Shown here: positions 4,637-17,835 of the stretch, one piece after another
Layout of the letters: every line of letters starts with the position of its first letter
Position numbering within the stretch: the first letter of the stretch is position 1
Translations under genes and position numbers: made by a program
The notes under the pieces: model-generated
Told to the model about the DNA's origin: nothing
Seen by the model: the letters and a program-made list of their open reading frames with translations, nothing else
Database searches by the model: none
DNA from: Escherichia phage NHEP1
Sequence record: PQ511146.1
Strand: one strand, 5' to 3'
Length of the DNA stretch: 64,000 nucleotides

Positions 4637-5023
4637 TTATTCACCAACAGTTTGGACGTGAACTTTGTTACCAAGGGCCTCAAGCTTGTCTAACACAGCC
4701 TGTGCTGCTTTAGCTCCATCTGCACCTAACAGCATGTCTTTTGCAAAGGTAACACCGTGAACGGCAACAACCAGGTTATAGGATTGACCAACTTCTAACG
4801 GTTTTGCAAGATGAACCGTACCAGCATCTTTGACAAGAGCACGGTCAACAAGAACGCCGTACACATCAGAACCGTCTGCGTTAGCGATGGTCCCAGTTTT
4901 TGTTACAACAGTACCAGCGTGGTGATGCTCTGTCAGTGTTACCTTGATTTCTTTAAAATTGTAGCCAGCATCGCTAGAATCAACTTTGCCGAGCACGATA
5001 TCAGAATATTGAGCGGTAATCAT
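4637..5023 (-). CDS. head decoration / accessory capsid protein candidate
   Basis: 128-aa ORF directly upstream of the capsid gene (position of lambda D); no sequence-level support. Confidence 0.35.
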   Translation of the reverse strand: MITAQYSDIVLGKVDSSDAGYNFKEIKVTLTEHHHAGTVVTKTGTIANADGSDVYGVLVDRALVKDAGTVHLAKPLEVGQSYNLVVAVHGVTFAKDMLLGADGAKAAQAVLDKLEALGNKVHVQTVGE

Positions 5024-5043
5024 TTATTTCCCCCGTTAATGTC

Positions 5044-6021
5044 TTATTTGGTAGATTCTGCACGTGCACGAGCAAGTGCTTTTGCAACGTTTTCAGCAAG
5101 AATTTCTTCTGCGGATTTTGCAATATCATCCACAACAGGTTCGCCATCATTACCATGTTCAGTGGTGGCAAACTCTTCTTTGGTTTTATGCACCTCTGCT
5201 TCCAGCTCTTTAATTTTGGCTTGAGCTTTCTCCAGCATAGCTACGATAGGTTCGTTAGCTTTTTCCAGCATGAAGTCAACCAGGGTTGCATGATCTTCTT
5301 CACCAACAAAGCTTAAAGCTTGAGCTTTAGCCAGCATTTTAGCTTTTTCAACTTCAACCTGGGCCTTGATGATTTCTTCAGCTTTACTCTGGGTTGCTTT
5401 CAGCTCTTCTACTTGCTTCAGCAGATCCAGATACTCTTTAGTTTTGGTTACGTCCACCGGATTCTCCTCGGTATTTGCGGATTTTGCAACATCATCCACC
5501 TCGGTAGTTTTATCCACCTCAGTAGGTTCCTGTACCGCCTTGATCAGGTTCCCTTCTTTATCGAAGAGATCAGCGGTTACTTGTTCAAAAATCTGTTGTG
5601 TTTTTAACAGGCTGTACTGATCTACCACGCTAAGCTGCTTGCCTTCTTTTGCAGCTTTATGAATGGTCACGTTATCACAACGCTCTTCCAGCCATGCAAT
5701 GCAAGACTCTGCGTCAGCTTGCGCCCATTCCCAATCAGGATGCTCTTTAGCCCAAGCTTCCTCTTCAATCTCAAAACCAAGCATGTGTGCAAGTGCCTTG
5801 GCATCGTCATACCACATATCGAAGAAACGACGCAGGTATTCTTCAAAACTCAGCTCCACAGTAACTTGGCGAAGTGCCTTAACAATATCGTCTGTTAACT
5901 GCTCAGGCTGAAGATCACTCTTCATCAAAAGAGATACAGGTCTGTTGTTAGCGCTATAGCCTTGCGCCTTATGGCACAGGGCAATCCCCTTCTCTTTAAT
6001 AGTGATTGTTTTTTCAGACAT
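5044..6021 (-). CDS. capsid scaffolding protein
   Basis: 325-aa acidic protein with long predicted coiled coil (EELKATQSKAEEIIKAQVEVEKAKMLAKAQ) between portal and capsid genes. Confidence 0.5.
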   Translation of the reverse strand: MSEKTITIKEKGIALCHKAQGYSANNRPVSLLMKSDLQPEQLTDDIVKALRQVTVELSFEEYLRRFFDMWYDDAKALAHMLGFEIEEEAWAKEHPDWEWAQADAESCIAWLEERCDNVTIHKAAKEGKQLSVVDQYSLLKTQQIFEQVTADLFDKEGNLIKAVQEPTEVDKTTEVDDVAKSANTEENPVDVTKTKEYLDLLKQVEELKATQSKAEEIIKAQVEVEKAKMLAKAQALSFVGEEDHATLVDFMLEKANEPIVAMLEKAQAKIKELEAEVHKTKEEFATTEHGNDGEPVVDDIAKSAEEILAENVAKALARARAESTK

Positions 6022-6440
6022 TATTCATTGCCCTCTTCTACAACACTGATCCCGAAATTTACGTTGGTAATTTCGCCCGTCTCTTCATCAACATTGCCTG
6101 TTGCCTGAATGCTTAGGCCACCAACAATGCCAGCCTTCTTAGCTTCCCATAATTCAGGATTATTGTATTTAACTTTAGCAACCCAAGAGCCAGCCTTGAT
6201 GACCTGCTCAGTACCAATTACTACAACATCAAACTCTTCTTGAATCCACGTCTTTTCAATAGTGAAAGCATCCGTAGAGGTCAAGTGGAAAAGGTTTTCA
6301 GAAACTAGGCCTGCGGCGTATGCTGCGTCCCAATTATCTTTAGCCTTTTTGATGGTGTCTTTACTCATCCACTCACCGTGAGCGTCTTTAGTGTCCGGTT
6401 CGTAGATGATTTCGTAGGAAATCATTTCTTCCTGTGGCAT
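6021..6440 (-). CDS. head morphogenesis protein (possible prohead protease)
   Basis: ORF 6021-6596 trimmed to internal ATG (6438-6440) to clear the portal stop at 6508; sits between portal and scaffold. Function inferred from position only. Confidence 0.3.
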   Translation of the reverse strand: MPQEEMISYEIIYEPDTKDAHGEWMSKDTIKKAKDNWDAAYAAGLVSENLFHLTSTDAFTIEKTWIQEEFDVVVIGTEQVIKAGSWVAKVKYNNPELWEAKKAGIVGGLSIQATGNVDEETGEITNVNFGISVVEEGNE

Positions 6441-6507
6441 CTTATTCCCCATGTGGATTATTTTATCACGCCAAAGGAGGTTTTGCAACCCCCTGCGTTG
6501 ATAATTT

Positions 6508-8064
6508 TTAATTTTCCATATTGGATATGGAATTATCTCTGGTTGATGACATCTTAGAAGTGCCGTTGCCAGTGGATCCTGCAGCCATACCATCACCAGC
6601 CCTGCTGATATCCTGGCCTAAAAGCTTCATCAGCTCTTCTTGATCCATGTCTTCGTCAAATCTTTCATCAAACCCGCCTACTTCAAGAATCTTATTAATT
6701 ACTGCAGGAGTTTTTGGCAAGTAACCTACAGCACCGATCCTCTGGACAAACTTGGAGAAGCTCTCCATGTCCACTTCTTCAATCAGACCAGGTTTCAGTT
6801 TAGGCATATCATCATCTTCAAGGATGATACCATTCAATGCCAGAAGCTGTGGAATAAGATCTTTATTGAAGGCCTCAGTGATAATATCTATATCACGCTG
6901 AACAAAATGCCCATGGATGGATTGTTTTGACTCAGACAGAGAGAAGGACCCAACGTTATCGTTACCAAGGTTAATAAAGCCAGCACCGAAACGGTCAAGA
7001 ATCGCCTTCTTACGGGCATCAATCAAATCTTTAGTGGAATACTGCTTACCCATACCATCAACCCCCTTCAGGGTCATGGAGTAAAGCTCTTTACCAGACT
7101 TATCTCTATCAGACGGAAGTATAAAGAAACTTTGCTCCCCACTATGGGCGTTTGCTGCGTCCAACATAAGATCTGCAACCATTCTCCCTTCCATCGAATT
7201 CGGGTCAATGCTGGCCTTGTTCAAAATATTGGAAGGAATTTTCAGCTCAAGCACACCACCAAGGTCTTTGGAGCAGCCAACAACCTCAAGGTTTTCAATC
7301 AAAACTTTCTCACGGAAAGATCTGTAGCAACCTATCATCGGTGACACACCTGCAGGATTAGATTCTGTTCCTGACAGAGTCATGAGCATAAGCTTTTTAG
7401 CAGGGATGAAAATTTCAGGCTCATTAAAGCCTTTTGAAGGCATTGCAGCGAGAGGTCCAGCCCAGCGTGCATTCTGAGTGTTTAGAAATGCATTAGGTGA
7501 CTGATAAATACCTGTCAGTGTTCTGCTATTCTTGTCAAAGACAAACGGCTCTGATCTGGACAAACTGGCCTGTGGTCGGAATGCAATTTTATCAATAAGA
7601 AGCATCCCGGCATATTTACCTTCTTTCTCTCTGCGGTATACTTTCTCAAACAGTGAAAAACCATACTCGTTAAAGGTAGCTGCGCTTCTTGCAATATCTC
7701 GAAGAGTTTGTTGGTTTGCCAAATTACGCAAAGAATACTCTATAAGCTCGGCGGCTTTCTTAGAGTCTTCACTTTTAACATTATAAAGGATCTTAAAATC
7801 ATTGAATGCTTTCGTGATGAAAACATATTTTGTATCTAAGGCAGTAGCAACTGTGGAATCACATTTCATAGTCTCCACTGTGGCAATCAGCTGAGGCCAA
7901 CGCAATTCCTCAACCATCATAGATTGTGATTCTGCCATAATTTGGGAAAGTGCGCCAGAACCGATCTCACTCATACGAACATTATGAGTTGGTGCGCCTG
8001 CGTTCCCAGATTTATTCACAGTTTTGGCTGTGGCGTTGTGTTTCCTGCGGTTCTTTTTGGACAC
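6508..8064 (-). CDS. portal protein
   Basis: 518-aa ORF immediately downstream of large terminase; size and position typical of portal. No motif check possible. Confidence 0.6.
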   Translation of the reverse strand: MSKKNRRKHNATAKTVNKSGNAGAPTHNVRMSEIGSGALSQIMAESQSMMVEELRWPQLIATVETMKCDSTVATALDTKYVFITKAFNDFKILYNVKSEDSKKAAELIEYSLRNLANQQTLRDIARSAATFNEYGFSLFEKVYRREKEGKYAGMLLIDKIAFRPQASLSRSEPFVFDKNSRTLTGIYQSPNAFLNTQNARWAGPLAAMPSKGFNEPEIFIPAKKLMLMTLSGTESNPAGVSPMIGCYRSFREKVLIENLEVVGCSKDLGGVLELKIPSNILNKASIDPNSMEGRMVADLMLDAANAHSGEQSFFILPSDRDKSGKELYSMTLKGVDGMGKQYSTKDLIDARKKAILDRFGAGFINLGNDNVGSFSLSESKQSIHGHFVQRDIDIITEAFNKDLIPQLLALNGIILEDDDMPKLKPGLIEEVDMESFSKFVQRIGAVGYLPKTPAVINKILEVGGFDERFDEDMDQEELMKLLGQDISRAGDGMAAGSTGNGTSKMSSTRDNSISNMEN

Positions 8065-8166: not shown

Positions 8167-9714
8167 TTAGATAAAACGCTTGAACATAGAAGGTGATGAG
8201 ATTGATGGAATCACACAAGGCAGCGCTACCTCCTCTTTCTCCAGGAAATTAATCGCAGAAGCTACACAGTCGGCCCAGTCGTCTTTTCTGTTAAATGTTG
8301 ATCTTTCCCCGTTGAACTTTTCAAGTTCAGTTAGAAATGCTTCCAGAGTGTCAGGATGGAAACTGGATTTTACAATCCTCACCATTCCTTGTTGGGCAAG
8401 ATTGGCAAAGGGTGAGAACCTTGTCAGTTTAGATTTGTTGGAAGGCATTGGATCTTCTTCAACCCTGAACCCTTCGGCGAGCAAGGATCTGGACGAGGTT
8501 AAGAACTCACTCTTACCTGCCTGACCGGGGTCCACAGAAAATACGATTATGCAATCATCTCCATCAAACTGCGCCTGTTTCCTGATGATCACATCTCGTT
8601 CCCCAGCCTTTTTACAGAACTTTCCTTCCAGACCTGTGGAATACCTACCGTCATCCACGTTCTCAGGACAATAATCCCCGGACAGGTAATAAAAGCCGTC
8701 GCTATCTTTACTTACCTTAACACTGGCGGTAAAGTCAGGAAATTTATTACCGGAAGTTCTCTCGGTTCCTGCTTTATCCCATGCCCTGCAAGATACTGAT
8801 CCAAGAGGTACTCTATCGGCATCACGAAGGAAAGATCTTTGGAAATAGTTTGCACCCTCAGGTTTGGCAAACCAGTTGCCATGAAGAAGCTGGGCTTTTT
8901 CAAGCTCGGGTAGACCTTCAAGGAAAGCAAGGTATTCTGGGTTGTCTCTCAAGCAGACAGGATTATCGAAAATTGTTGCGCCTATAAACGAGAATGACAA
9001 CGGTCTTGGCTTGATCTCCACACCCAGTCCGTTAACCGTGGTGTATTTCTCTATTAACTCCTCTTTAGAGTCTCCCCAGATAAACTCACCGTCGCGTCGG
9101 ATAAAATATCTTTTCTTACCACATTTCTCCGGGTCTGGATACCCTTCATCGTCCAACCACCACCTAACCAGTTTGGCAAGCATGTGTTCTGAGTCGGGGT
9201 TACAGCTGATAACCATTCTTGATGGATACTTTGACTGAGATCGCAGACGAGACATCAAATAGTCTATCTGCTCCCATTCGAATTGCGTGCCTTCATCGAA
9301 GCAAACCATGGTGTACTCAAGGCCTTGATGGTTAAGCTTATCTTGGACATACTCCATGTGGCAGTATTTTACAACGGCCCCTTTTTTGCTCCTGTCCCAC
9401 TTGCCAGTGCTCGGATCAAACCGTGGAAAAATAAACTTATGATCCTTCTCTCTGAACTTTGGTTTAATGTTTTCAGGCAGATCACTGTAAATAGCTACTG
9501 CTTTAGGCCATAGACCACCCTCACCTTCCAACTGTGGAGTTGTTCTTCGGAACATAACCACAGAGCTGTGCGGGTCATCAATAATTTTAAGCGGCATTAG
9601 CTGCAAGAGGAACGACTTGCCAGACCCAGCTGCACCTCCGATCACCAAAATATCTGCATCGTTCTCTAGGATCATCTTCTGCTTTTCAGAACACGGTCCG
9701 TAAATCTTAGACAT
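8167..9714 (-). CDS. terminase large subunit
   Basis: 515 aa; N-terminal Walker A ILVIGGAAGSGKSF; size and placement ahead of portal. Confidence 0.85.
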   Translation of the reverse strand: MSKIYGPCSEKQKMILENDADILVIGGAAGSGKSFLLQLMPLKIIDDPHSSVVMFRRTTPQLEGEGGLWPKAVAIYSDLPENIKPKFREKDHKFIFPRFDPSTGKWDRSKKGAVVKYCHMEYVQDKLNHQGLEYTMVCFDEGTQFEWEQIDYLMSRLRSQSKYPSRMVISCNPDSEHMLAKLVRWWLDDEGYPDPEKCGKKRYFIRRDGEFIWGDSKEELIEKYTTVNGLGVEIKPRPLSFSFIGATIFDNPVCLRDNPEYLAFLEGLPELEKAQLLHGNWFAKPEGANYFQRSFLRDADRVPLGSVSCRAWDKAGTERTSGNKFPDFTASVKVSKDSDGFYYLSGDYCPENVDDGRYSTGLEGKFCKKAGERDVIIRKQAQFDGDDCIIVFSVDPGQAGKSEFLTSSRSLLAEGFRVEEDPMPSNKSKLTRFSPFANLAQQGMVRIVKSSFHPDTLEAFLTELEKFNGERSTFNRKDDWADCVASAINFLEKEEVALPCVIPSISSPSMFKRFI

Positions 9715-10001
9715 TAACCTCTCTCCTTTGGAAACAGTGTTCTTATATAGTCTTGCAAAATGATCAATTTAGCTCTATCATTACTACAAGACAGGTTATT
9801 ATCCCTCATAATGCCAGAATTCACCGCATCTGGCGCACCTTTCTTCAAAGGGATAGCTTTAGCAGGTGGTTTCATAGCACCCTCGGGAGGTTTAACAATC
9901 AACCTTCCTACATCCGGAGGGTCAATCCTGTATTCTCTCTCAACGCTGGTTGCACACCCACACAATAACAAGCACAAAACAACCAGTGCAGTAACTCTCA
10001 T
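9714..10001 (-). CDS. o-spanin (Rz1-like outer-membrane lipoprotein)
   Basis: Signal peptide plus lipobox-like LLLCGC, Pro-rich body, C-terminus ...PKERG resembling lambda Rz1 ...PSERG; 4-nt overlap with i-spanin ORF. Confidence 0.55.
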   Translation of the reverse strand: MRVTALVVLCLLLCGCATSVEREYRIDPPDVGRLIVKPPEGAMKPPAKAIPLKKGAPDAVNSGIMRDNNLSCSNDRAKLIILQDYIRTLFPKERG

Positions 10002-10396
10002 CGAACCTCCTGATTGATACTCTCATTATAAATATCTATTAGCTGATCAGGAAGTGTTGACTTCTTACCTTCAGGAGATTGGAGGTAGATAATCTGCTTT
10101 TCTTTACCTGCCTTCTCAGCCATATTTAATTTATCCTGTAGGTCAGAAAGAGATTTTTCAAGGTTTTTAACCTCCTCTGCGTGGCCCATTTTAATTTTGT
10201 CGGCCTGCTTTTGTTGTTGGTCAAGGATCCGTTCCCACTTTAACTCTGTTGCTGACACACCTTCCTGATAAGCATCATTGAGCTTAGAGTTAAACCAATA
10301 CACGGCACCAAGATAAGCCATGCCTATAGCCGCTGCAAAAACTAAACCTTTTATGATCCCTCTGTATTTACTCATCAATGTTAAAACTGAAATCAT
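9998..10396 (-). CDS. i-spanin (Rz-like)
   Basis: 132 aa; N-terminal transmembrane segment (GLVFAAAIGMAYLGAVYWF) then charged coiled-coil periplasmic domain; overlaps o-spanin ORF. Confidence 0.55.
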   Translation of the reverse strand: MISVLTLMSKYRGIIKGLVFAAAIGMAYLGAVYWFNSKLNDAYQEGVSATELKWERILDQQQKQADKIKMGHAEEVKNLEKSLSDLQDKLNMAEKAGKEKQIIYLQSPEGKKSTLPDQLIDIYNESINQEVR

Positions 10397-10424
10397 TTTA
10401 AGGCTCCAGAAACGAAAAAACCCC

Positions 10425-10445
10425 GCAGCTATACAGCTAACGGGG
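10425..10445 (-). terminator. rho-independent terminator
   Basis: Plus strand AAAAAA-CCCCG...CGGGG; on the minus strand a GC stem followed by UUUUUU, downstream of gene 10502-10771. Confidence 0.45.
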
Positions 10446-10501
10446 CGGGTTAAAATTGAGTAACCTAAATAGATCGAAACTAACTAAAAGGAGACTAATA
10501 C

Positions 10502-10771
10502 TTATCGAGGCACTCGGTGGATGATTCTGACAGTAACCGCATTCTCATTCATCAAGTAAGCATCCACATCTCTGTAAATATAAAACTTCTGCTCGCTATC
10601 AACAACACAAGCTACTGCCCCTTCAGAGTTGTCTTCAAAGAAGACCACAACTGCATCGCAGCTTAGTTCATGATACGACTCTCGAAGATTTACAGCAAGA
10701 GGGTTGAAATCGTCACGAAGATCTAAAGTATGGGTTGGATTTACACGTTCTACAATTTTAAGTGTATACAT
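10502..10771 (-). CDS. hypothetical protein (ERVNPxHTL N-terminal motif)
   Basis: 89-aa ORF with AAGGAA RBS; N-terminus shares ERVNP(T/V)HTL motif and an 11-nt identical core with ORF 52482-52763. Confidence 0.5.
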   Translation of the reverse strand: MYTLKIVERVNPTHTLDLRDDFNPLAVNLRESYHELSCDAVVVFFEDNSEGAVACVVDSEQKFYIYRDVDAYLMNENAVTVRIIHRVPR

Positions 10772-10817
10772 TTTAAAGGTTCCTTTTGTGTGTATATATT
10801 TAAAGTATAACTAAAGG

Positions 10818-10894
10818 TGGTCTCCACGGAGTGATTCGAACACTCGACCTCCTGATCCCAAATCAGGCGCTCTACCAAGCTGAGCTACGCGGAG
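10818..10894 (-). tRNA. tRNA-Pro (anticodon UGG)
   Basis: Manual fold of minus strand: 7-bp acceptor (one GU), D stem GCTC/GAGC, anticodon stem CCTGA/TCAGG, loop TTTGGGA, T stem GAGTG/CACTC with TTCGAAT loop, encoded CCA. Confidence 0.85.
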
Positions 10895-10905
10895 TATTTA
10901 TTATT

Positions 10906-10980
10906 TGGTGGCCCTGGGTGGAATTGAACCACCGTCTGGCGATTATGAGTCGCTTGCTTGAACCTTCCAGCTACAGGGCC
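10906..10980 (-). tRNA. tRNA-Met or tRNA-Ile2 (anticodon CAU)
   Basis: Manual fold: acceptor GGCCCTG/CAGGGCC, anticodon loop CTCATAA, T arm GGTGG-TTCAATT-CCACC, encoded CCA. Confidence 0.75.
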
Positions 10981-10981
10981 A

Positions 10982-11057
10982 TGGTGCTGATGGCAGGACT
11001 TGAACCTGCAACCTATTGATTACAAATCAATTGCACTACCAATTGTGCTACATCAGC
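10982..11057 (-). tRNA. tRNA-Thr (anticodon UGU)
   Basis: Manual fold: acceptor GCTGATG/CATCAGC, D stem GCAC/GTGC, anticodon stem ATTGA/TCAAT with loop TTTGTAA, T arm GCAGG-TTCAAGT-CCTGC, CCA. Confidence 0.85.
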
Positions 11058-11063
11058 AAAAGG

Positions 11064-11160
11064 TGCTAGGTGATGGAATCGAACCACCTATGTATTCAAC
11101 GACTACCTCGTCTATTTTCAGGATTAAAAATCCTCGCCCTTGCCAAAGGGCTTACCTAGC
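11064..11160 (-). tRNA. atypical tRNA-like gene (anticodon-loop-like UUUUUAA, possible tRNA-Lys-UUU variant or pseudogene) with about 30-nt extra region
   Basis: Good acceptor (GCTAGGT/ACCTAGC), D arm (GCCC-TTTGGCAA-GGGC) and T arm (GGTGG-TTCGATT-CCATC), but only a 4-bp anticodon stem (AGGA/TCCT), 97 nt long, no encoded CCA. Confidence 0.4.
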
Positions 11161-11258
11161 GCAATATGTCGACCATGTGGCTAGTCGGCGATGACGACTG
11201 TAACATTTGATAATCCGGTTCTGCTTCCGGCTTTCGCTTAATTACAAGGTCAACAATG

Positions 11259-11349
11259 TGGCGGAGAGTAATGGAATCGAACCATCATCGAGTCATCCTC
11301 AACGGGACGGTTTTCAAGACCGCTTGAGCACCATTGCTCCCTACCCTCC
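11259..11349 (-). tRNA. tRNA-Ser (anticodon UGA), class II
   Basis: Manual fold: acceptor GGAGGGT/ACTCTCC (one GU), anticodon stem GCGGT/ACCGT with loop CTTGAAA, long variable arm, T arm GATGG-TTCGATT-CCATT, encoded CCA. Confidence 0.75.
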
Positions 11350-11463
11350 TTTATAAATTACACTGATAATGACACTGATTTTCGAGCAGTTAGTGACTAG
11401 TATAAACGACGATAAATATCAATGTCATTATCTGTATGATTTATGCATTTAAAAATATAAATT

Positions 11464-11551
11464 TGGTGGTGAGTGATGGAGTCGAACCACCCGAATCGCA
11501 ATGATAACAGATTTACAGTCTGCCCCGCTACCCCTACGGAATTAACTCACC
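11464..11551 (-). tRNA. tRNA-Tyr (anticodon GUA), class II
   Basis: Acceptor GGTGAGT/ACTCACC, anticodon stem-loop GCAGA-CTGTAAA-TCTGT (as in E. coli tRNA-Tyr), T arm GGTGG-TTCGACT-CCATC, CCA; D arm could not be cleanly folded by hand. Confidence 0.7.
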
Positions 11552-11681
11552 TAAATACTAATATTTAAATTCTTTTTAAAATAGCTAGTGTTCTAACCAC
11601 TAACTATGAGGTATCGGTAAAGTGGTTACCGCCACTTGCCGAAGATTTACTCTGCTAAAGTAAGCTACATTAAAAAGAACT

Positions 11682-11756
11682 TGGCACCCCGTACTGGACT
11701 CGAACCAGTGTCAACGGCTTAGAAGGCCGCTGCTTTATCCACTAAGCTAACAGGGC
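11682..11756 (-). tRNA. tRNA-Arg (anticodon UCU)
   Basis: Acceptor GCCCTGT/ACGGGGT (two wobble pairs), D arm GCTT-AGTGGATA-AAGC, anticodon stem GCGGC/GCCGT with loop CTTCTAA, T arm ACTGG-TTCGAGT-CCAGT, CCA. Confidence 0.75.
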
Positions 11757-11852
11757 ACTGGGTGGCTTTCTTTTACACCTGAGCCGCCAGAAAAGGTGGG
11801 AGACCATGTTTATAATATTACACTGTTAGGCAAAGTTTGTCAAGAAAATATT

Positions 11853-12191
11853 TTAACTATTGCCAACAGGCTGTATTTCTGTGGTAAATGGCATAAAAGG
11901 TGCTGGTTTTTCAGCCTCTTCCACTACCACCTCTTCCTCTTCACCAAACATCTCATCATATTCTTCCTGCATTCGGTCTGCCTTATCAAGAACATACTCT
12001 GCAATGCTTTGACGAATATTTTGTTTGGTTTTCGGGTCCAACATCAGCTCTCTTAAAACTTTGTGAGCTTCTGGAACCATCGCTATAAAAGATTCCTTCA
12101 TATCAAGAATGTTCTTCTCTAGCTGAATGGCGTTGGACTCCTCTTTCAGAGGTCTGCCTCTACGGCGACGCTTTTTAGTTGTATCCGCCAT
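11853..12191 (-). CDS. hypothetical protein with basic AT-hook-like N-terminus (KKRRRRGRP) and acidic C-terminus
   Basis: ORF 11853-12311 trimmed to ATG at 12189-12191 (MADTTKK...) with GGAGG RBS; the longer start would overlap its own promoter. Confidence 0.5.
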   Translation of the reverse strand: MADTTKKRRRRGRPLKEESNAIQLEKNILDMKESFIAMVPEAHKVLRELMLDPKTKQNIRQSIAEYVLDKADRMQEEYDEMFGEEEEVVVEEAEKPAPFMPFTTEIQPVGNS

Positions 12192-12219
12192 GTTTCCTCC
12201 ATTATCACGTGATAGGTGG

Positions 12220-12248
12220 ATTTTATCACGGCAAATACTGATTGTCAA
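12220..12248 (-). promoter_or_regulatory. sigma70-like promoter with palindromic operator
   Basis: Minus strand TTGACA (12243-12248) N17 TAAAAT (12220-12225), followed by perfect palindrome ATCACGTGAT (plus 12204-12213) before the RBS. Confidence 0.5.
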
Positions 12249-12536
12249 GTTCGCCGCAGGGTGGTATTCCCTGCGACTTGCCCAGCGTCCTGGACCAGCA
12301 AGACCCAACAAGTGGGTTACCAGATACCCATTACCGCGCTCTGGCTCGACCTTATTACAGGTTGGCTGGGGTCACATCGTCATGTGCTGGCTGCCCCTAC
12401 CATTTTAAGTGTGGTGCACTATCAAGCCCTCTAAGGGGAACTCAGCCTTCTCCGAACCCTGTTTCAAAGCATCCGGAGATAAAGCCATCAAACTCATCTT
12501 TAAATTGGATATTCATCATGATACACGAAAACAACC

Positions 12537-12779
12537 TCATTGTAAAGCACAAATAAATAAAACATACTTAATTTGTTTGTTATCAGGCTCAGGGTAGAAG
12601 TAGAAGATCTTGCTATCACCGATCTGAACACCACCATCCCAACAGCATAACCCATAACCAGTATTCATACAAGCTAAGTCGTTGGCAAAATCTATTGCAT
12701 CATCTAGTGCACGAAATTCACCTTCATCTTCTAAATAATCCTCATTCATGGAACGGAAAACGAGCTTAACCTTAAACAT
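12537..12779 (-). CDS. hypothetical protein
   Basis: 80-aa minus-strand ORF, acidic; no motif. Confidence 0.4.
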   Translation of the reverse strand: MFKVKLVFRSMNEDYLEDEGEFRALDDAIDFANDLACMNTGYGLCCWDGGVQIGDSKIFYFYPEPDNKQIKYVLFICALQ

Positions 12780-12855
12780 AGCATTACCTGTAGACCTCGT
12801 AAGTTAAAATTGTATCACATCATATTGCAGATCTTATCAGGTAACATTATTTTTG

Positions 12856-13044
12856 TCAACAGATTCCGGCCTTATCCCTCCTGTCTGCGTATTCTTTAAT
12901 CGCAACCTCACCTGCATTGGTAACCAGATCTTCAAAGTAATTCTCAAGCTCCTCGTCAATGTCCGGTGACCAGCTCTTTTTCCTGTCAGTGTGAATTGCA
13001 GACTTGTTGAACTTATTACAATTCTTTGCTACCGGATTGTTCAT
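12856..13044 (-). CDS. hypothetical protein
   Basis: 62-aa minus-strand ORF. Confidence 0.35.
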   Translation of the reverse strand: MNNPVAKNCNKFNKSAIHTDRKKSWSPDIDEELENYFEDLVTNAGEVAIKEYADRRDKAGIC

Positions 13045-13054
13045 TAAGCTCTCC

Positions 13055-13633
13055 TCAACGTTCGTAGTAAATCTTATTCAACATTACCTCATCGTTTGCA
13101 GAAAGGATATCAAGATATGCATCACCAAATCTGCCTGCAACAACCTCTGCATGATACATCACTTCGTTAACATCGTCAAGAGTGATAACCGGATGACCAT
13201 ATCTTTCTGAATATTGTCTCAGTGTGCGATGTAACGAGTCGTCATCATATGCAGACTTTTTAATATCACAAACACGACGAATGGCCTTGATGTCGAAAAA
13301 ACCTGTGCGATACCACCCAAGAAAAAAGTTCCGTGTAGTGTCAACATCTACATCAATACCATTAAGAACCTTATCTACAAGATAGCTGTCATCCTTTGGA
13401 CTAGCGTCCTTAGTGCGAATGTAGTTGCCATCTTTTCCAGGTGATAGCTCCTTCTCATCACCAACCTGCATGCCATCATTTGGCGGTGTTAGCCACTTAT
13501 CAGGATGCTTACGATCACGAGCGTTAGAATGATTACGCTGGAAACCTGGCTTCCACTTGAAAGTTTTCTCCATCTGTTCTTCATTCTGATAACGTTTTGC
13601 AATCTTTTCACTGGCATCTTTGCGTGAACTCAT
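13055..13633 (-). CDS. hypothetical protein
   Basis: 192-aa minus-strand ORF with AGGAG near start; no motif recognised. Confidence 0.5.
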   Translation of the reverse strand: MSSRKDASEKIAKRYQNEEQMEKTFKWKPGFQRNHSNARDRKHPDKWLTPPNDGMQVGDEKELSPGKDGNYIRTKDASPKDDSYLVDKVLNGIDVDVDTTRNFFLGWYRTGFFDIKAIRRVCDIKKSAYDDDSLHRTLRQYSERYGHPVITLDDVNEVMYHAEVVAGRFGDAYLDILSANDEVMLNKIYYER

Positions 13634-13740
13634 AGCAGACTCCTCTTCAAGTTATAGAAAAACTCACTGTATCGCTTTGTAACGAGCTTTTCTATCAAAC
13701 TGGTGCGATTGCCTTACTTGGTATAGTTTATATAGCTGTG

Positions 13741-13990
13741 GAGCGATTTAGGGGCCTTCTTGTCAGTTTCCACACATAAACTTTATCCGAACTCGCGCGG
13801 GAGGCTCTCAACCGACTCCTTCCGGCGCTGGCAAGCTTTCGTCGGTGGTCCACATTAGTGCTCGGCCTTTGGCCTGCGCTATCGCTTCGCTCCCACACAT
13901 GTTAACAGTCCTGCATGTATGCACTTCTGTTATTGTGTGCACTATGGAGGCCCGGCATCTCGCCCCTCGTAGGCGAGTGCCAATGAAGGG
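13741..13990. other. GC-rich ORF-free island (candidate structured RNA or eroded gene)
   Basis: About 250 bp visibly GC-enriched in an AT-rich genome, no ORF of 60 aa or more in any frame; nested hairpins such as GGCCC...CTCGCC-CCTCGTA-GGCGAG...GGGCC. Confidence 0.3.
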
Positions 13991-14141
13991 CCGACACTAC
14001 CCATGATAAGTAATAAATTTAAAACATGGTACTTAGGATCTAGTATATTCTACATAAGTTAAGTATATGTACTTTAGTACCATAAGTACTAGATCTTTTA
14101 TTTTTTTTTATTATTTAGTTATTTTAGTTATATTCTTTATG

Positions 14142-14224
14142 TGTCCGTATCACGGACAGTTAGTGTCCGTATTACGGGCAGATGTGTCCGCGTGACGGAC
14201 AGTGGTGTCCGTATCACGGACAGT
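14142..14224. repeat. four-copy array of 18-bp palindromic iterons (TGTCCGTATCACGGACAG family)
   Basis: Copies at 14142-14159, 14165-14182, 14186-14203, 14207-14224 (first and last identical, two with 2-3 substitutions); each an inverted repeat; AT-rich tract 14095-14140 upstream. Confidence 0.8.
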
Positions 14225-14297
14225 TACTAACCTCTGTGCCATAGTGAACATAAAACATACAAATCCTTATAGTACAGATGTTTAAGTTTTTACTGGT

Positions 14298-14648
14298 CTA
14301 ACCAGTTGTTGACATTCGAATAACTTCTTCTGGTGGCAAAACTTTGGAAAATGTGCATCTTTTACCTCTCCCTTGTGTGGATATTTCAACCACTCCTGCA
14401 CATTCTAAAGTTTTAACGCACGCTGCTGCTTTTGTTTTCTTTATCCCAACATCTGCTGCAATTTTCCTTGTGCTGGGTGTGAAGCGTGAATTTTCTCCAA
14501 GCTTATACCAGTTGTGCAGGTAGCAGTATACAATCTTGTCATATAAGTCAAGAACAACAACCTCCCCAGTCGTGTCATTCAAAACTTTTGACATAGACAG
14601 TATTTCAAGGGGGACTTTAAGATATAGCAGCTTATCCCCATCTTTCAT
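14298..14648 (-). CDS. putative DNA-binding protein (helix-turn-helix)
   Basis: 116 aa; HTH-like segment TRKIAADVGIKKTKAAACVKTLECAGVV; gene ends 74 nt from the iteron array. Confidence 0.4.
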   Translation of the reverse strand: MKDGDKLLYLKVPLEILSMSKVLNDTTGEVVVLDLYDKIVYCYLHNWYKLGENSRFTPSTRKIAADVGIKKTKAAACVKTLECAGVVEISTQGRGKRCTFSKVLPPEEVIRMSTTG

Positions 14649-14695
14649 ATCTTCTGATTCTCCTTGTGTGGCAATTTTCTTTAAAATAGCAGGGA

Positions 14696-15250
14696 TTACT
14701 CCCCGCTGTCAATAGCAAGACTCATTGCAATACGGTATGCCTCTTCTAATGGTAAGAGTCTCCCCCACACATCCCAACCGACATCAAACTGCCTGCCAAA
14801 CAACTGCTGCGTGGTTCCGTGAGCATGACCGAACAGTTGGACTGATCCGTGAGGCTTTCTGTTCCACTTTGCAAACTGGTAATGGCTCATACAGATCAAA
14901 TTCTTGTTGTGGCGAAGCTCGTAATAATCTACAACCTCATGACCGAACTCTTTCATAATTCTGACAGTCGTCCTTGTGTCATGGTTACCACGAACAAGAA
15001 TAATATGTCCGTTCAACATATTTAGAACATCTGGAAGCAATTTGTTGATATTCTTATCATTAGTGCACGCAATATCCCCCAAGTGAAACACAGTGTCTGC
15101 AGGTGACACAACAGAGTTCCACTTGGTGATGATTCCCGCATTCATACTGTCAAGATTGTGATCATACTGAGATCTGTGTTTTTGACATGAGTCGAACTCC
15201 ATTACCCGCTGGTGGAGAAAGTGTGTGTCGCTTGTTACAAAGTATTTCAT
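14696..15250 (-). CDS. calcineurin-like metallophosphoesterase (RNA/DNA end-healing phosphatase candidate)
   Basis: ORF trimmed to ATG 15248-15250 (MKYFVTSDTHF...); motifs SDTHF, GDIA, GNHD typical of the metallophosphoesterase fold. Confidence 0.7.
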   Translation of the reverse strand: MKYFVTSDTHFLHQRVMEFDSCQKHRSQYDHNLDSMNAGIITKWNSVVSPADTVFHLGDIACTNDKNINKLLPDVLNMLNGHIILVRGNHDTRTTVRIMKEFGHEVVDYYELRHNKNLICMSHYQFAKWNRKPHGSVQLFGHAHGTTQQLFGRQFDVGWDVWGRLLPLEEAYRIAMSLAIDSGE

Positions 15251-15257
15251 ACATTCC

Positions 15258-15668
15258 TCATTTAAGTTTAATGCAGTTTTTAAGCTGGCGTTCCATACGA
15301 TCCACAACCCTGTCTGGAACATCATGAATGCTTTTATTACCATGGCGGTTTTCAACCACGATCACGGTATAACTATATCCATGACTGATCGCCATGTCAA
15401 TATATTCTTGCACATATTTTTCTTTTGTAAACGTATTACTTACCACGATACGGTCGTAGCCCATACGCATCATATCTTCTACGTTATCTTTGCACCATTT
15501 TGCTGCAAGTGTTACTTTACTTGCATCCCAATTGTAATTGCCGTCATCGTCGTACCAGAACATATCGTTCTCAAAATGTGGATACAGACCTTCTAAAGAT
15601 AGCGCATTTGCCAGTGTTGATTTGCCAGACCCTGGTAGACCACGCACGATATATAGCATTTTAGACAT
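15258..15668 (-). CDS. P-loop polynucleotide kinase-like protein
   Basis: ORF trimmed to MSKMLYIVRGLPGSGKST; Walker A and overall layout resemble the T4 PNK kinase domain; directly upstream of the phosphoesterase. Confidence 0.6.
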   Translation of the reverse strand: MSKMLYIVRGLPGSGKSTLANALSLEGLYPHFENDMFWYDDDGNYNWDASKVTLAAKWCKDNVEDMMRMGYDRIVVSNTFTKEKYVQEYIDMAISHGYSYTVIVVENRHGNKSIHDVPDRVVDRMERQLKNCIKLK

Positions 15669-15786
15669 AGTAACTCTCCGTTTTAATTTTAATGATAGTA
15701 TACCTAACTGTTTTGTTAATTTCAAGTGTTGACACCAGGTTATTTGTGTGGCAGAATAAAGGGACAAAATGACAAATGAGGAATGT

Positions 15787-16704
15787 ATGATGAAGTATTT
15801 TAATGCAGACGACCTAGTTGACAAAGGTCTTGTAACCAGCAGATATTACCCGGATCTTGGGTTAAAGATCTATAAATATGCCAGAAAAGTATTCTACAAC
15901 AATTTATGGCATTTGTCTCATCGTTTGCTGGAGTGCCGAGGCATTGTTGTCGGTAATGAAGGAAATGTTGTGGCATGGCCCTTCACAAAAGTGTTTAACT
16001 TGGGAGAAAATTCCACCAACCTGCCTGACAATAAACTTGTGACGGCGGTAGAGAAAAAGAACGGATTCCTTGGTGTGGTATCATCTCATAAAGGTGAACT
16101 ATTGTTCTCAACAACCGGGTCTCTTGATTCTCCATATTGTAACCTTGCAAAGGAAACAATCCATGAGCAATGTGGTAATTTAGATCTTATCAAGAGGGTT
16201 ATGGGCCATGAAAACATGACATTCATGTTTGAAATTTGTCACCCTTCAGATCCGCATATTGTTCAGGAAGATCATGGCGCATATTTGATAGGTTGCAGAT
16301 ATAATGATTCTGGAATAATGCTACCAGAAGCAGCTTTAGATGGGATTGCCAAATACCTTGGTGCAAAACGTCCTCACACTGTGCGTGAAATTCCGTTCAG
16401 CTATGCAAAAGAATTAGCTGCAGAAACAAGAGGTGAAGGGTATATGATTCGTAAGCCTTACTACCCTTATGATCTGCAGCTGAAGATCAAGTCTCCATAC
16501 TATTTGGCACGGAAGGCCGTAATGAGGGGTAAAGCTTGGAAGATTTGGGATGATGATATCTTTAAACGTGTTGACGAAGAGTTTTATGGCATGGTAAACT
16601 TCATTCGTAGCAATTACACAGAAGATGTGTGGAACTGCCTCCTGGAGCAAGAACGTCGTGAGATACTTGACTGCTATTTCCACAACGAGGACTATATGCA
16701 ATGA
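15787..16704 (+). CDS. RNA ligase-like nucleotidyltransferase
   Basis: GAGGA RBS then ATG 15787; motif I-like EKKNGF (KxNG), motif IV-like EGYMIRK, downstream KIKSP; divergent from the kinase/phosphatase pair. Confidence 0.55.
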   Translation: MMKYFNADDLVDKGLVTSRYYPDLGLKIYKYARKVFYNNLWHLSHRLLECRGIVVGNEGNVVAWPFTKVFNLGENSTNLPDNKLVTAVEKKNGFLGVVSSHKGELLFSTTGSLDSPYCNLAKETIHEQCGNLDLIKRVMGHENMTFMFEICHPSDPHIVQEDHGAYLIGCRYNDSGIMLPEAALDGIAKYLGAKRPHTVREIPFSYAKELAAETRGEGYMIRKPYYPYDLQLKIKSPYYLARKAVMRGKAWKIWDDDIFKRVDEEFYGMVNFIRSNYTEDVWNCLLEQERREILDCYFHNEDYMQ

Positions 16705-17051
16705 AGAAGTTGATTGTGTGGCTGGATGACTTGAGAGATCCGTCAAATTATGGGCTCCCAGATGCTCTTTGGCTAAAGAATTCCTCTGAGTTTATGGATT
16801 TTATTAACGATAATGGAAAGCTCTACAGGCGCGTTTCTGAGTGGCACATGGACAACGACCTTGGAGAGGTATTTGAAGGGTACGATTGCCTATCTATGCT
16901 GGAGGAAAAATTTGTATTTGGTAAGCCTCCTGTAGTTGACAACGTGAAGATTTTCGTGCATACTTCTAACCCATCAGCGGCTCGTAAATTCATGCTTGCT
17001 GCTGACTCGTTTAAAAAGTTTGGAATAGAGATTAAACAAAACATCTACTGA
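16701..17051 (+). CDS. hypothetical protein
   Basis: 116-aa ORF overlapping stop of RNA ligase gene (coupled); no confident motif. Confidence 0.45.
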   Translation: MKKLIVWLDDLRDPSNYGLPDALWLKNSSEFMDFINDNGKLYRRVSEWHMDNDLGEVFEGYDCLSMLEEKFVFGKPPVVDNVKIFVHTSNPSAARKFMLAADSFKKFGIEIKQNIY

Positions 17052-17059
17052 GGACACTT

Positions 17060-17821
17060 ATGCGACGACTGATCATTATCTCCGGTGCTGGTTTGAGCGC
17101 TGAATCTGGTATCCCCACTTTCCGATCTGGTGGCACTGCAATGTGGGAGAATTTCAGCATCGATGAGGTGTGTAACATCCACACCTTTGCCAAGAACTAC
17201 TATAAGGTGCATGACTTTTACAATGCACGGCGTGTAGCTCTGGGCAGTGTTGATCCTAACCTTGCACATCTCCGGATCGCTGAGTGGTATTCACGCTGGT
17301 CTGGTCGTGTGATCAACCTGACAACCAATGTAGATGATTTGCTGGAGCGTGCTGGTGTAAAACATGAAGATATTTTACATGTCCACGGATATTTGCCAGA
17401 AATAGTCTACGAGGATGATGAAGGGAGTGACGTCATTAAAGACATTGGATACTCTGAGGTAGACGCAAGCAAGTATACTTGGGTTAAGCCTAATGTAGTG
17501 TTTTTCGGAGAAGTAGCTCCAAAGTATACAGACATGTATGACCTGTTGACTTCTCTGACGAGCAATGATATGGTTATCCTTGTAGGGTGCTCCAACACAG
17601 TTATCAATTTTAACTGGGAGCTATTTCCTGCCTGTAATAAGGGAACCAAACTGCTGATCGTCAACAAATACGACTCACAGCATTTAGGGGAGAATGGCAT
17701 TTCACGTAGTGACATTTACCAGTATGAGGATCGCGGCATCCCAGTTTGGTTTAACGGGGCGGTTGACGCTTTCTCTGATAAAACATTTATTGACATCGTA
17801 GAAAACTTTATGGAACTGTAA
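17060..17821 (+). CDS. Sir2-family (sirtuin-like) NAD-dependent protein
   Basis: N-terminal GAGLSAESGIPTFR (sirtuin Rossmann signature), TTNVDDL (TQNID-like), HVHG motif; GAGGA RBS. Confidence 0.75.
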   Translation: MRRLIIISGAGLSAESGIPTFRSGGTAMWENFSIDEVCNIHTFAKNYYKVHDFYNARRVALGSVDPNLAHLRIAEWYSRWSGRVINLTTNVDDLLERAGVKHEDILHVHGYLPEIVYEDDEGSDVIKDIGYSEVDASKYTWVKPNVVFFGEVAPKYTDMYDLLTSLTSNDMVILVGCSNTVINFNWELFPACNKGTKLLIVNKYDSQHLGENGISRSDIYQYEDRGIPVWFNGAVDAFSDKTFIDIVENFMEL

Positions 17822-17835
17822 GCGGAGGCCTTTTA

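Follow-up and report, generated by a model that had tools for sequence, protein, structure and literature searches.

To our knowledge, the repair of tRNA-Lys against PrrC by Pnkp (PseT) and Rnl1 (RnlA) of phage T4 is the only phage RNA-repair pathway that has been studied in depth. Bacteria commonly possess defences that cut RNA, among them PrrC, RloC, HEPN nucleases, and Cas13. A sirtuin-centred "type 2" RNA-repair neighbourhood has been described in Escherichia phage V5 and Proteus phage Mydo (Iyer, Burroughs, Anantharaman, Aravind 2022, Viruses 14:1977; PMC9503650). In V5, this neighbourhood comprises a T4-like tRNA ligase, cREC, a nucleotide kinase, a sirtuin, a MazG-family pyrophosphatase, and a calcineurin-like phosphoesterase, and the sirtuin was proposed to act like KptA/Tpt1 on 2'-phosphates (PMC9503650). 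Our analysis concerns the same locus in Escherichia phage NHEP1 (PQ511146.1), a phage of the same group, of which a 64-kb stretch was examined; this stretch is referred to as the window, all coordinates refer to it, and all six genes lie within it at 14696-18549. The module is already annotated in related phages and already described (PMC9503650). The general reading of Iyer et al. (2022) is the same as ours, and the survey presented here shifts its emphasis while leaving that basic reading unchanged. We consider it likely that the module constitutes an RNA break-repair (heal-and-seal) pathway, distributed over separate small proteins, that serves as a conditional counter-measure to host ribonucleases.

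The chemistry predicted for this module comprises the same three steps as that of T4 Pnkp and Rnl1. The NHEP1 ligase is a member of the Rnl1 family whose catalytic motifs all align with those of T4 Rnl1, and T4 Pnk is the best structural match of the kinase. The differences lie in how the proteins are built. The NHEP1 kinase is a stand-alone protein of 136 aa without a HAD domain, the 3' healing step being assigned to a binuclear metallophosphoesterase (MPE), whereas the ligase, at 305 aa, lacks the C-terminal domain of T4 Rnl1 and carries Asn in place of the Asp of motif I.

The six genes form a unit in which the kinase and MPE genes read leftward and the ligase, cREC, Sir2, and MazG-like genes read rightward. 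On the minus strand, the MPE gene (184 aa; 14696-15250; Pfam Metallophos, phrog_547) is preceded by the gene for the predicted mini P-loop polynucleotide 5'-kinase (136 aa; 15258-15668; AAA_33, phrog_2071, phrog_505), and because the kinase ends 7 bp before the MPE start, both are regarded as one minus-strand unit. The predicted Rnl1-type ATP-dependent RNA ligase (305 aa; 15787-16704, plus strand; PF09511; alternative ATG at 15769) is divergent from the kinase across a 118-bp spacer (15669-15786), which contains back-to-back sigma-70-like promoter matches, TTGACA-17-CAGAAT at 15729-15757 on the plus strand and TTGAAA-17-TATACT at 15725-15697 on the minus strand, both recognized from consensus matches alone. 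The 4.6 kb around the module is 95-99% identical to 120 rV5-group phage records, with one further record at 80-90%. The window is that of a Vequintavirus, and its close records include ECP32, FV3, rV5 variants, and the BASEL phages RudolfGeigy and MaxBurger. Because they are conserved at 90-99% DNA identity across these 121 phage records, the open reading frames (ORFs) of the MPE, kinase, and ligase are real genes rather than chance ORFs. Names already given in the records include "RNA ligase", "polynucleotide kinase", "ATPase", "3'-phosphatase, 5'-polynucleotide kinase", "phosphoesterase", and "Sir2-like protein"; in an NCBIfam search with the six module proteins, none scored above any curated cut-off. 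An earlier note on this DNA had proposed the MPE, kinase, and ligase genes with the first two in one minus-strand operon divergent from the third, and both the genes, through their Pfam and PHROG matches, and the arrangement, through the 7-bp gap and the 118-bp spacer, are borne out. The extent it gave to the module (14696-16704) contains these three genes, but its right border was drawn too tightly and left out the cREC, Sir2, and MazG-like genes that extend to 18549.

The ligase matched PF09511 (RNA_lig_T4_1) over the whole model (positions 1-227 of 227) with 54.8 bits, the gathering cut-off being 28.3, and phrog_562 with E=7e-65. Single-sequence searches of the PDB were uninformative for the ligase and for the kinase, and family profiles were used instead. 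In the ligase alignment, built from 33 relatives with 40-49% identity, the residues R51-G52, K68-x-F70-N71, K90-x-N92-G93, F148-E149, E217-G218, and K233-x-K235 were invariant. The family profile matched T4 Rnl1 (2c5u; E=1e-13), aligning R51, K68/F70, K90, E149, E217-G218, and K233/K235 with T4 R54, K75/F77, K99, E159, E227-G228, and K240/K242, respectively. Motifs I, III, IV, and V are present, as are the Rnl1-specific upstream Arg and the Lys-x-Phe element. At E<=1, the PDB matches of this profile included no Trl1 structure and no Pnkp ligase-domain structure. Motif I reads KxNG, its third residue being Asn instead of Asp, and K90 stands opposite the adenylylated lysine K99 of T4 Rnl1. The earlier note had asked for a KxDG adenylation motif; the lysine is found where it is expected, while the literal KxDG is not, and the doubt that the note attached to this motif falls away because the motif I lysine is in place.

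The kinase matched AAA_33 (E=2.7e-10), phrog_2071 (E=2e-58), and phrog_505, a family named "polynucleotide kinase" (E=3e-10), and belongs to a family of at least 8000 relatives that are stand-alone P-loop proteins of ~130 aa. Invariant in this family are the P-loop G10-L-P-G-S-G-K16-S-T, D35, N78-T79, and E106-N-R-H-G110, and S77 is nearly so. D35, located ~20 residues past the P-loop, aligns to the first Asp of the RDD motif of Pnkp1, which we take to correspond to D35 of T4 Pnk. Against the PDB, the family profile retrieved a stand-alone Rhizopus kinase, PSTK, Pnkp1, T4 Pnk, and CthPnk with E-values from 7e-6 to 4e-3; the top match, the Rhizopus azygosporus kinase 9d8a, covers the P-loop alone (residues 1-33). 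The AlphaFold model of the kinase has a predicted local distance difference test score (pLDDT) of 83, and its best Foldseek matches were T4 Pnk (1ly1/2ia5) and CthPnk (4gp6), with ranks 1-12 occupied by T4 Pnk except for CthPnk at rank 5 (E=5e-6 to 4e-5; template modelling scores 0.64-0.67). PSTK followed the polynucleotide kinases, and adenylate and gluconate kinases ranked lower. The invariant R108 within ENRHG may be the counterpart of the lid arginines that contact the NTP in T4 Pnk (R122/R126); it lies beyond profile position 102, where the sequence alignment to T4 Pnk ends, and in a part of the model with a pLDDT of 64-77. Judged from this model, the predicted fold is closer to polynucleotide kinases than to nucleoside monophosphate, deoxynucleoside monophosphate (dNMP), or sugar kinases. 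The resemblance to the T4 PNK kinase domain claimed in the earlier note was thereby recovered, and the dNMP kinase that it had named as the alternative was not, the nearest solved structures being the T4 and Clostridium thermocellum polynucleotide kinases instead. The 136-aa protein consists of one domain, without the fused C-terminal HAD (DxDxT) 3'-phosphatase domain, and the database name "3'-phosphatase, 5'-polynucleotide kinase" has therefore been over-transferred from T4.

The MPE matched Pfam Metallophos (E=1.9e-5) and phrog_547 (E=8e-50). A 219-aa ORF starting at TTG was discarded as an over-extension, since the ATG at 15250 agrees with annotated orthologues. The metal-binding motifs D8, H10, G58-D59, G88-N89-H90, H123, and G141-H142-x-H144 are invariant across 38 sequences. 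Its AlphaFold2 model (pLDDT 95) has its best PDB match in 1xm7, Aquifex aq_1665, followed by Mre11, MJ0936, LpxH, and GpdQ. Assignment to the Pnkp/lambda-phosphatase type was considered and rejected: the CthPnkp phosphatase 4j6o was not among the 50 best matches listed, and hhalign of the MPE against the Pnkp-type domain of cyanobacteria aligned 46 columns around the GD and GNHD motifs. The enzyme is thus of the aq_1665 / MJ0936 / Mre11-like kind, not of the CthPnkp lambda-phosphatase kind, and the statement in the earlier note that the phosphatase is a metallophosphoesterase as in bacterial Pnkp holds at the level of the superfamily and not at that of the type. A putative role in 3'-end healing is assigned to it because it is linked to the ligase and the kinase. 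The same three activities, predicted here, and an MPE-superfamily 3' healer are found in the Pnkp-Hen1 system of C. thermocellum, whose kinase domain CthPnk is among the top matches of the phage kinase. In contrast to that system, the phage activities are encoded by separate genes rather than in one polypeptide, no Hen1 is present, the MPE is of the aq_1665 type, and the ligase belongs to the Rnl1 family.

The linkage of the three genes was surveyed in 80 of 402 IMG/VR stretches carrying ligase relatives, which were fetched and searched with profiles of the window proteins. Among the 53 complete loci, each with at least 3 kb on either side of the ligase, the MPE lay within 2.5 kb of the ligase in 48 and the kinase in 46, both of them together in 44, whereas Sir2 and cREC lay within this distance in 11 and 10 loci, respectively. 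Conservation thus centres on kinase, MPE, and ligase, to which lineages related to rV5 have added cREC, Sir2, and MazG. The published description of the V5 system centres on the sirtuin and treats the phosphoesterase as "occasional" (PMC9503650); in our survey, it is the phosphoesterase and the kinase that are constant and the sirtuin and cREC that are lineage-restricted. The earlier note had also called separate genes a less usual arrangement for a phage, a view that the separate MPE and kinase genes in 44 of these 53 loci contradict. The usual phage layout is MPE>ligase>kinase on one strand; the divergent layout is confined to the rV5 group (62 vs 3 loci), and this orientation alone is peculiar to the group. 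In the phage contigs L041 and L045, kinase and ligase are fused into one protein. cREC and Sir2 also occur apart from each other (L005, L006, and L040 vs L007, L010, and L016).

The healing pair was also encountered with another ligase. Starting from kinase relatives, we found freshwater metagenome phage contigs (L085-L088; 5001-8980) in which an overlapping mini-kinase/MPE pair lies ~2 kb upstream of a PF09414 (Rnl2-like) ligase, with neighbours that include Nudix, DUF192, and SET-domain genes. The presence of the same pair beside a PF09414 ligase indicates that it combines with different ligase families. As a separate observation, in the loci L045, L050-L052, L057, and L060, tmRNA genes and suppressor-type tRNAs (anticodons TTA and CTA, the latter called "Pyl") were located no more than 10 kb away, which suggests that some module phages are recoded or translation-manipulating phages.

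The same protein families occur in bacteria, where they are fused to different degrees. A kinase-ligase fusion of ~500 aa is encoded in Neisseria, Moraxella, Kingella, Eikenella, and Cardiobacterium, and nearly all of these fusions have the same MPE family just downstream (the Eikenella locus L091 lacks it). The ligase, kinase, and MPE families of Neisseria and Moraxella are those of the phage, but the kinase and ligase are one protein. Ro60/TROVE was present in the fetched flanks of 31 loci and lies upstream in the one locus that was read, that of Neisseria flavescens (L094; 3738-9404), where Ro60/TROVE, a 492-aa kinase-Rnl1-like ligase, a small ORF, an aq_1665-type MPE, and Nudix follow one another; about 50 loci within L090-L168 are similar. 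Judged from its domains, the Neisseria-type cluster looks like a cellular RNA-repair cluster made of the phage-module families. In Leptolyngbya-type cyanobacteria, a single protein of ~710 aa joins kinase, MPE, and ligase. Its kinase domain matched CthPnk 4gp6 (E=3.5e-11) and its MPE domain the CthPnkp phosphatase 4j6o (E=2.5e-24), so that both are of the CthPnkp type, while its C-terminal ligase, as seen in Leptolyngbya sp. PCC 7375 (L148), belongs to the rV5 (Rnl1-like) family and not to the Pnkp ligase type. In this strain, the 712-aa protein is encoded at 4726-6864 and RtcB 1.6 kb downstream at 8466-9647, and ~25 loci are similar; RtcB was found near the cyanobacterial gene in 15 loci. The bacterial ligases share 30-37% identity with the phage ligase family (profile E 1e-64 to 1e-80). 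Two MPE subfamilies, the aq_1665 type and the CthPnkp type, hence occupy the same slot beside kinase and ligase. The correspondence of the phage genes to the three domains of one cellular enzyme supports the MPE as the 3' healing step. The neighbours differ, being RtcB or Ro60 in the cellular relatives and cREC and Sir2 in the phage; because Ro60 and RtcB are RNA-repair markers, RNA is favoured over DNA as the substrate.

T4 pseT is dispensable on laboratory K-12, and the module genes of phage Bas54 resemble it in this respect. In this Vequintavirus, the block from bas54_0206 to bas54_0211 has the same gene order and identical lengths (bioRxiv 10.1101/2025.11.20.689424, supplement). Transposon-insertion data classed the MazG-like, sirtuin, ligase, kinase, and phosphoesterase genes of Bas54 as non-essential on E. 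coli K-12, with 88-96% of the TA sites hit in these five genes, and cREC as "intermediate" (bioRxiv 10.1101/2025.11.20.689424). The ligase gene accepted insertions at 56 of its 60 TA sites, in contrast to T4 rnlA (gp63), whose N-terminal domain is insertion-intolerant, and this tolerance indicates that the Bas54 ligase has no essential assembly role on K-12. Dispensability on K-12 fits a conditional counter-defence. The T4-like pseT orthologue of Bas37 was depleted (log2FC -1.9) in one of the comparisons tabulated for that phage, and the figure legend lists it among the labelled genes of the clinical-isolate plots (bioRxiv 10.1101/2025.11.20.689424). The depletion indicates that E. coli isolates demanding RNA end-healing exist.

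In the heal-and-seal pathway that we propose, the breaks to be mended would be those that host nucleases make in tRNA or other RNA, with 2',3'-cyclic-phosphate and 5'-OH ends. The 136-aa kinase would then phosphorylate the 5'-OH end; the MPE, aided by cREC in rV5-type phages, would open and remove the 2',3'-cyclic or 3'-phosphate to yield a 3'-OH; and the Rnl1-type ligase, adenylylated on K90, would join the 3'-OH to the 5'-phosphate. The pathway would act on RNA, probably on tRNA that a metal-independent nuclease has cut. The earlier note had equated kinase, phosphatase, and ligase with tRNA repair against anticodon nucleases. The families, residues, folds, context, and fusions support an RNA heal-and-seal set, which is one part of this claim; the enzymatic activities themselves, the RNA substrate, the tRNA target, and the anticodon nuclease or other nuclease that is countered are what we infer.

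Several observations weigh against this proposal. The ligase reached 35.9 bits against NCBIfam TIGR02308 (T4 RnlA), for which the cut-off is 242, and its alignment to 2c5u ends at T4 residue 250, the C-terminal domain of T4 Rnl1 being absent (305 aa vs 374-375 aa in T4 Rnl1). That domain confers tRNA specificity in T4. Because of this low score and the missing domain, the ligase constitutes a subfamily distinct from T4 RnlA. In the kinase family, the Arg three residues past the catalytic Asp (T4 R38, Cth R41) is missing, and the position of T4 R38 holds W, F, H, Y, or V. The nearest solved structure to the MPE, 1xm7, is that of a protein without known function, and further near folds are DNA nucleases (Mre11) or lipid/diester hydrolases. 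In 26 of the 53 loci, the RNA ligase has an ATP-dependent DNA ligase as a neighbour at no more than 2.5 kb, and the locus counts are not independent events, since the loci are phylogenetically related. Our literature search retrieved no experimental paper on the module proteins. In the comparison rows examined for Bas54, whose host was not established, the six genes were undepleted.

The accessory genes of the ligase operon may open other routes. The ligase stop codon overlaps the start codon of cREC (cyclic-phosphate-processing receiver-like; 116 aa; 16701-17051, plus strand) in the sequence ATGA at 16701-16704. This protein matched PF20274 (E=3.9e-14, 53.5 bits, cut-off 27), and its motifs WLDDLRDP, DNDLGE, HTSNP, and KFML, with the receiver-like residues D9-D10, D51-N-D53, T88-S89, and K96, are kept in 12 full-length phage orthologues. 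When the cREC domain was defined, it was predicted to process cyclic phosphates enzymatically and was linked to RNA ligases (PMC7824862). The Sir2-family protein (253 aa; 17060-17821, plus strand) matched PF02146 (E=1.3e-26, 94 bits) and phrog_2162 and conserves the NAD-binding/catalytic motifs GAGxSxESG, TTNVDD, and HVHG. No CxxC pair was present in the sequence read between HVHG and VVFFGE, the four-Cys zinc module being absent. Because this zinc-binding Cys tetrad is missing, the protein is unlikely to be the "NAD-dependent deacetylase" of many records; it is predicted to have a sirtuin fold and is probably not a classical deacylase. The last gene of the operon encodes a predicted MazG-like nucleotide pyrophosphohydrolase (237 aa; 17836-18549, plus strand; phrog_671, E=1e-20; no Pfam match) and is followed by a G+C-rich hairpin with a T run on both strands (18556-18574), the likely end of the operon, at the place where phage Gotham has an annotated terminator. 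Sir2 and the MazG-like gene are accessories confined to the rV5 lineage, and their roles may be 2'-phosphate removal, the handling of NAD/ADP-ribose by-products, or something unrelated.

A second repair branch through cREC and the zinc-less sirtuin, as proposed by Iyer et al. (2022) for rV5-type phages, seems doubtful to us. cREC would open the 2',3'-cyclic phosphate to a 2'-phosphate, the ligase would seal the break, the sirtuin would strip the junction 2'-phosphate with NAD+, and the MazG-like enzyme or the MPE would dispose of the ADP-ribose by-product. We regard as similarly unlikely that the module as a whole follows a Trl1/Tpt1-like route, in which cREC opens the cyclic phosphate to 2'-phosphate/3'-OH, the kinase acts on the 5' end, the ligase leaves a junction 2'-phosphate, the sirtuin transfers this phosphate to NAD+ like Tpt1/KptA, and the MPE and MazG-like protein merely clear by-products. 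The module does resemble fungal/plant Trl1 and Tpt1 in having an Rnl1-clade ligase, a P-loop kinase, and a cyclic-phosphate-handling enzyme, but it contains neither a 2H cyclic phosphodiesterase nor Tpt1/KptA. The shared operon of cREC, Sir2, and the MazG-like gene with its common terminator, the position of cREC between the ligase and kinase genes in sister phages with Sir2 next, the conserved acidic residues of cREC, a sirtuin unlikely to be a classical deacetylase, and the publication of the proposal (PMC9503650) all speak for such a route. Against it stands the distribution of the genes, cREC in 10 and Sir2 in 11 of the 53 loci, all of them the nearest rV5 relatives, compared with the MPE in 48 and the kinase in 46, together with the occurrence of cREC and Sir2 without each other. 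The KxNG form of motif I, also that of yeast Trl1, would suit this route, but the ligase profile matches T4 Rnl1 and no Trl1 structure at E<=1. Moreover, we know of no sirtuin that removes an RNA 2'-phosphate; if the second branch were true, an RNA 2'-phosphotransferase activity would be new to the sirtuin fold.

The two further alternatives to the heal-and-seal pathway detach the kinase and the MPE from the RNA ligase. That these two enzymes clean 5'-OH/3'-phosphate DNA ends for the phage DNA ligase, with the Rnl1-like protein a bystander, is very improbable in our view. T4 Pnk acts on DNA as well, Mre11 is among the structural neighbours of the MPE, a candidate origin and initiator lie next door, and an ATP-dependent DNA ligase gene is located at 19178-20461 of the window, and such a gene is found no farther than 2.5 kb from the RNA ligase in 26 of the 53 loci; however, the constant partner of the pair is an RNA ligase, of the Rnl1 type in 44 of the 53 loci and of the PF09414 type in other phages, the kinase was found fused to an RNA ligase and never to a DNA ligase, and the bacterial homologues adjoin Ro60/TROVE or RtcB. 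Unrelated roles, with the ligase serving in tail-fibre attachment like T4 gp63 and the kinase and MPE acting on nucleotides or signals such as cyclic-nucleotide immune signals, have the least to recommend them. Many database records do label the ligase "RNA ligase 1 and tail attachment protein", the degradation of cyclic nucleotide signals has been suggested as a role of phage calcineurin-like phosphodiesterases (PMC7824862), and the kinase family, with its at least 8000 relatives, is very large and generic. An essential tail-fibre attachment role is nevertheless unlikely, since the Bas54 orthologue accepts insertions (56/60 TA sites), and independent roles are improbable because the three-way linkage is tight and fusions exist.

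The surroundings of the module were also examined. A cluster of seven phage tRNA genes (Pro, Ile2/Met-CAU, Thr, Lys-UUU, Ser, Tyr, and Arg; 10818-11756, minus strand; ARAGORN, Rfam) lies 2.9 kb from the module, with several small ORFs between them. Among the tRNAs that anticodon nucleases are known to attack are those for Lys (UUU), Tyr, and Arg. Of 60 related ligase loci, 35 had tRNA genes in the flanks that were fetched, a count inflated by shared ancestry. The cluster may contain possible repair substrates or represent a parallel counter-measure, and it fits the module loosely. The gene called "tRNA-??? (atcc)" by ARAGORN is tRNA-Lys(UUU) by Rfam alignment (11064-11160, minus strand); its UUUUUAA anticodon loop is intact, and its variable region is enlarged by an insert of ~26 nt, which is unusual for a Lys tRNA. 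An interpretation of this 99-nt "tRNA-???" as an intron-bearing tRNA needing a splicing ligase was rejected on the grounds of the intact anticodon loop and the location of the extra ~26 nt in the variable region. Rfam also added tRNA-Tyr(GUA) (11467-11551, minus strand), which ARAGORN had missed and which brings the number to seven. At a permissive threshold, an Rfam search of 10000-20000 found no known noncoding RNA inside the module; it yielded the tRNAs, a weak chance YrlA-like match, and a Plastid-ycf2 match overlapping tRNAs, and nothing else.

Between the tRNA cluster and the module, the palindrome TGTCCG-N5-CGGACA occurs in four tandem copies spaced 21-22 bp apart (14141-14226). These are the only copies in the 64-kb window, where 0.06 would be expected. 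The array adjoins an AT-rich stretch (GC 0.31) and a GC-rich stretch, at 14000-14130 and 13700-13999, and lies just 3' of a minus-strand HTH gene (14298-14648; DUF6945/HTH_36, PHROG "replication initiation protein"), whose Bas54 orthologue received few insertions and is classed "intermediate". The palindromes may represent an origin of the iteron type or an array of operators. The region 13860-14260 gave strong folding z-scores, which were considered as a sign of a module RNA and were attributed to this tandem array. Across the region, cumulative GC skew reaches its minimum at the divergent kinase/ligase spacer (15600-15800), where gene orientation flips from a minus-strand block of structural and tRNA genes to a plus-strand block of DNA-metabolism genes.

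Alongside the T4 pathway, therefore, large phages very widely carry a set that is built differently, from a 136-aa kinase, an aq_1665-type MPE, and a short Rnl1-like ligase; fused versions of it occur in Neisseria, Moraxella, and cyanobacteria. If our reading is true, the aq_1665-type MPE family would for the first time have a function, namely to supply the 3' half of a widespread split "Pnkp" composed of mini-kinase and MPE, which would pair with Rnl1-type or PF09414-type RNA ligases. The remaining novelty of the module is its enzymology, which would give functions to three large protein families and probe the idea of a Tpt1-like sirtuin.

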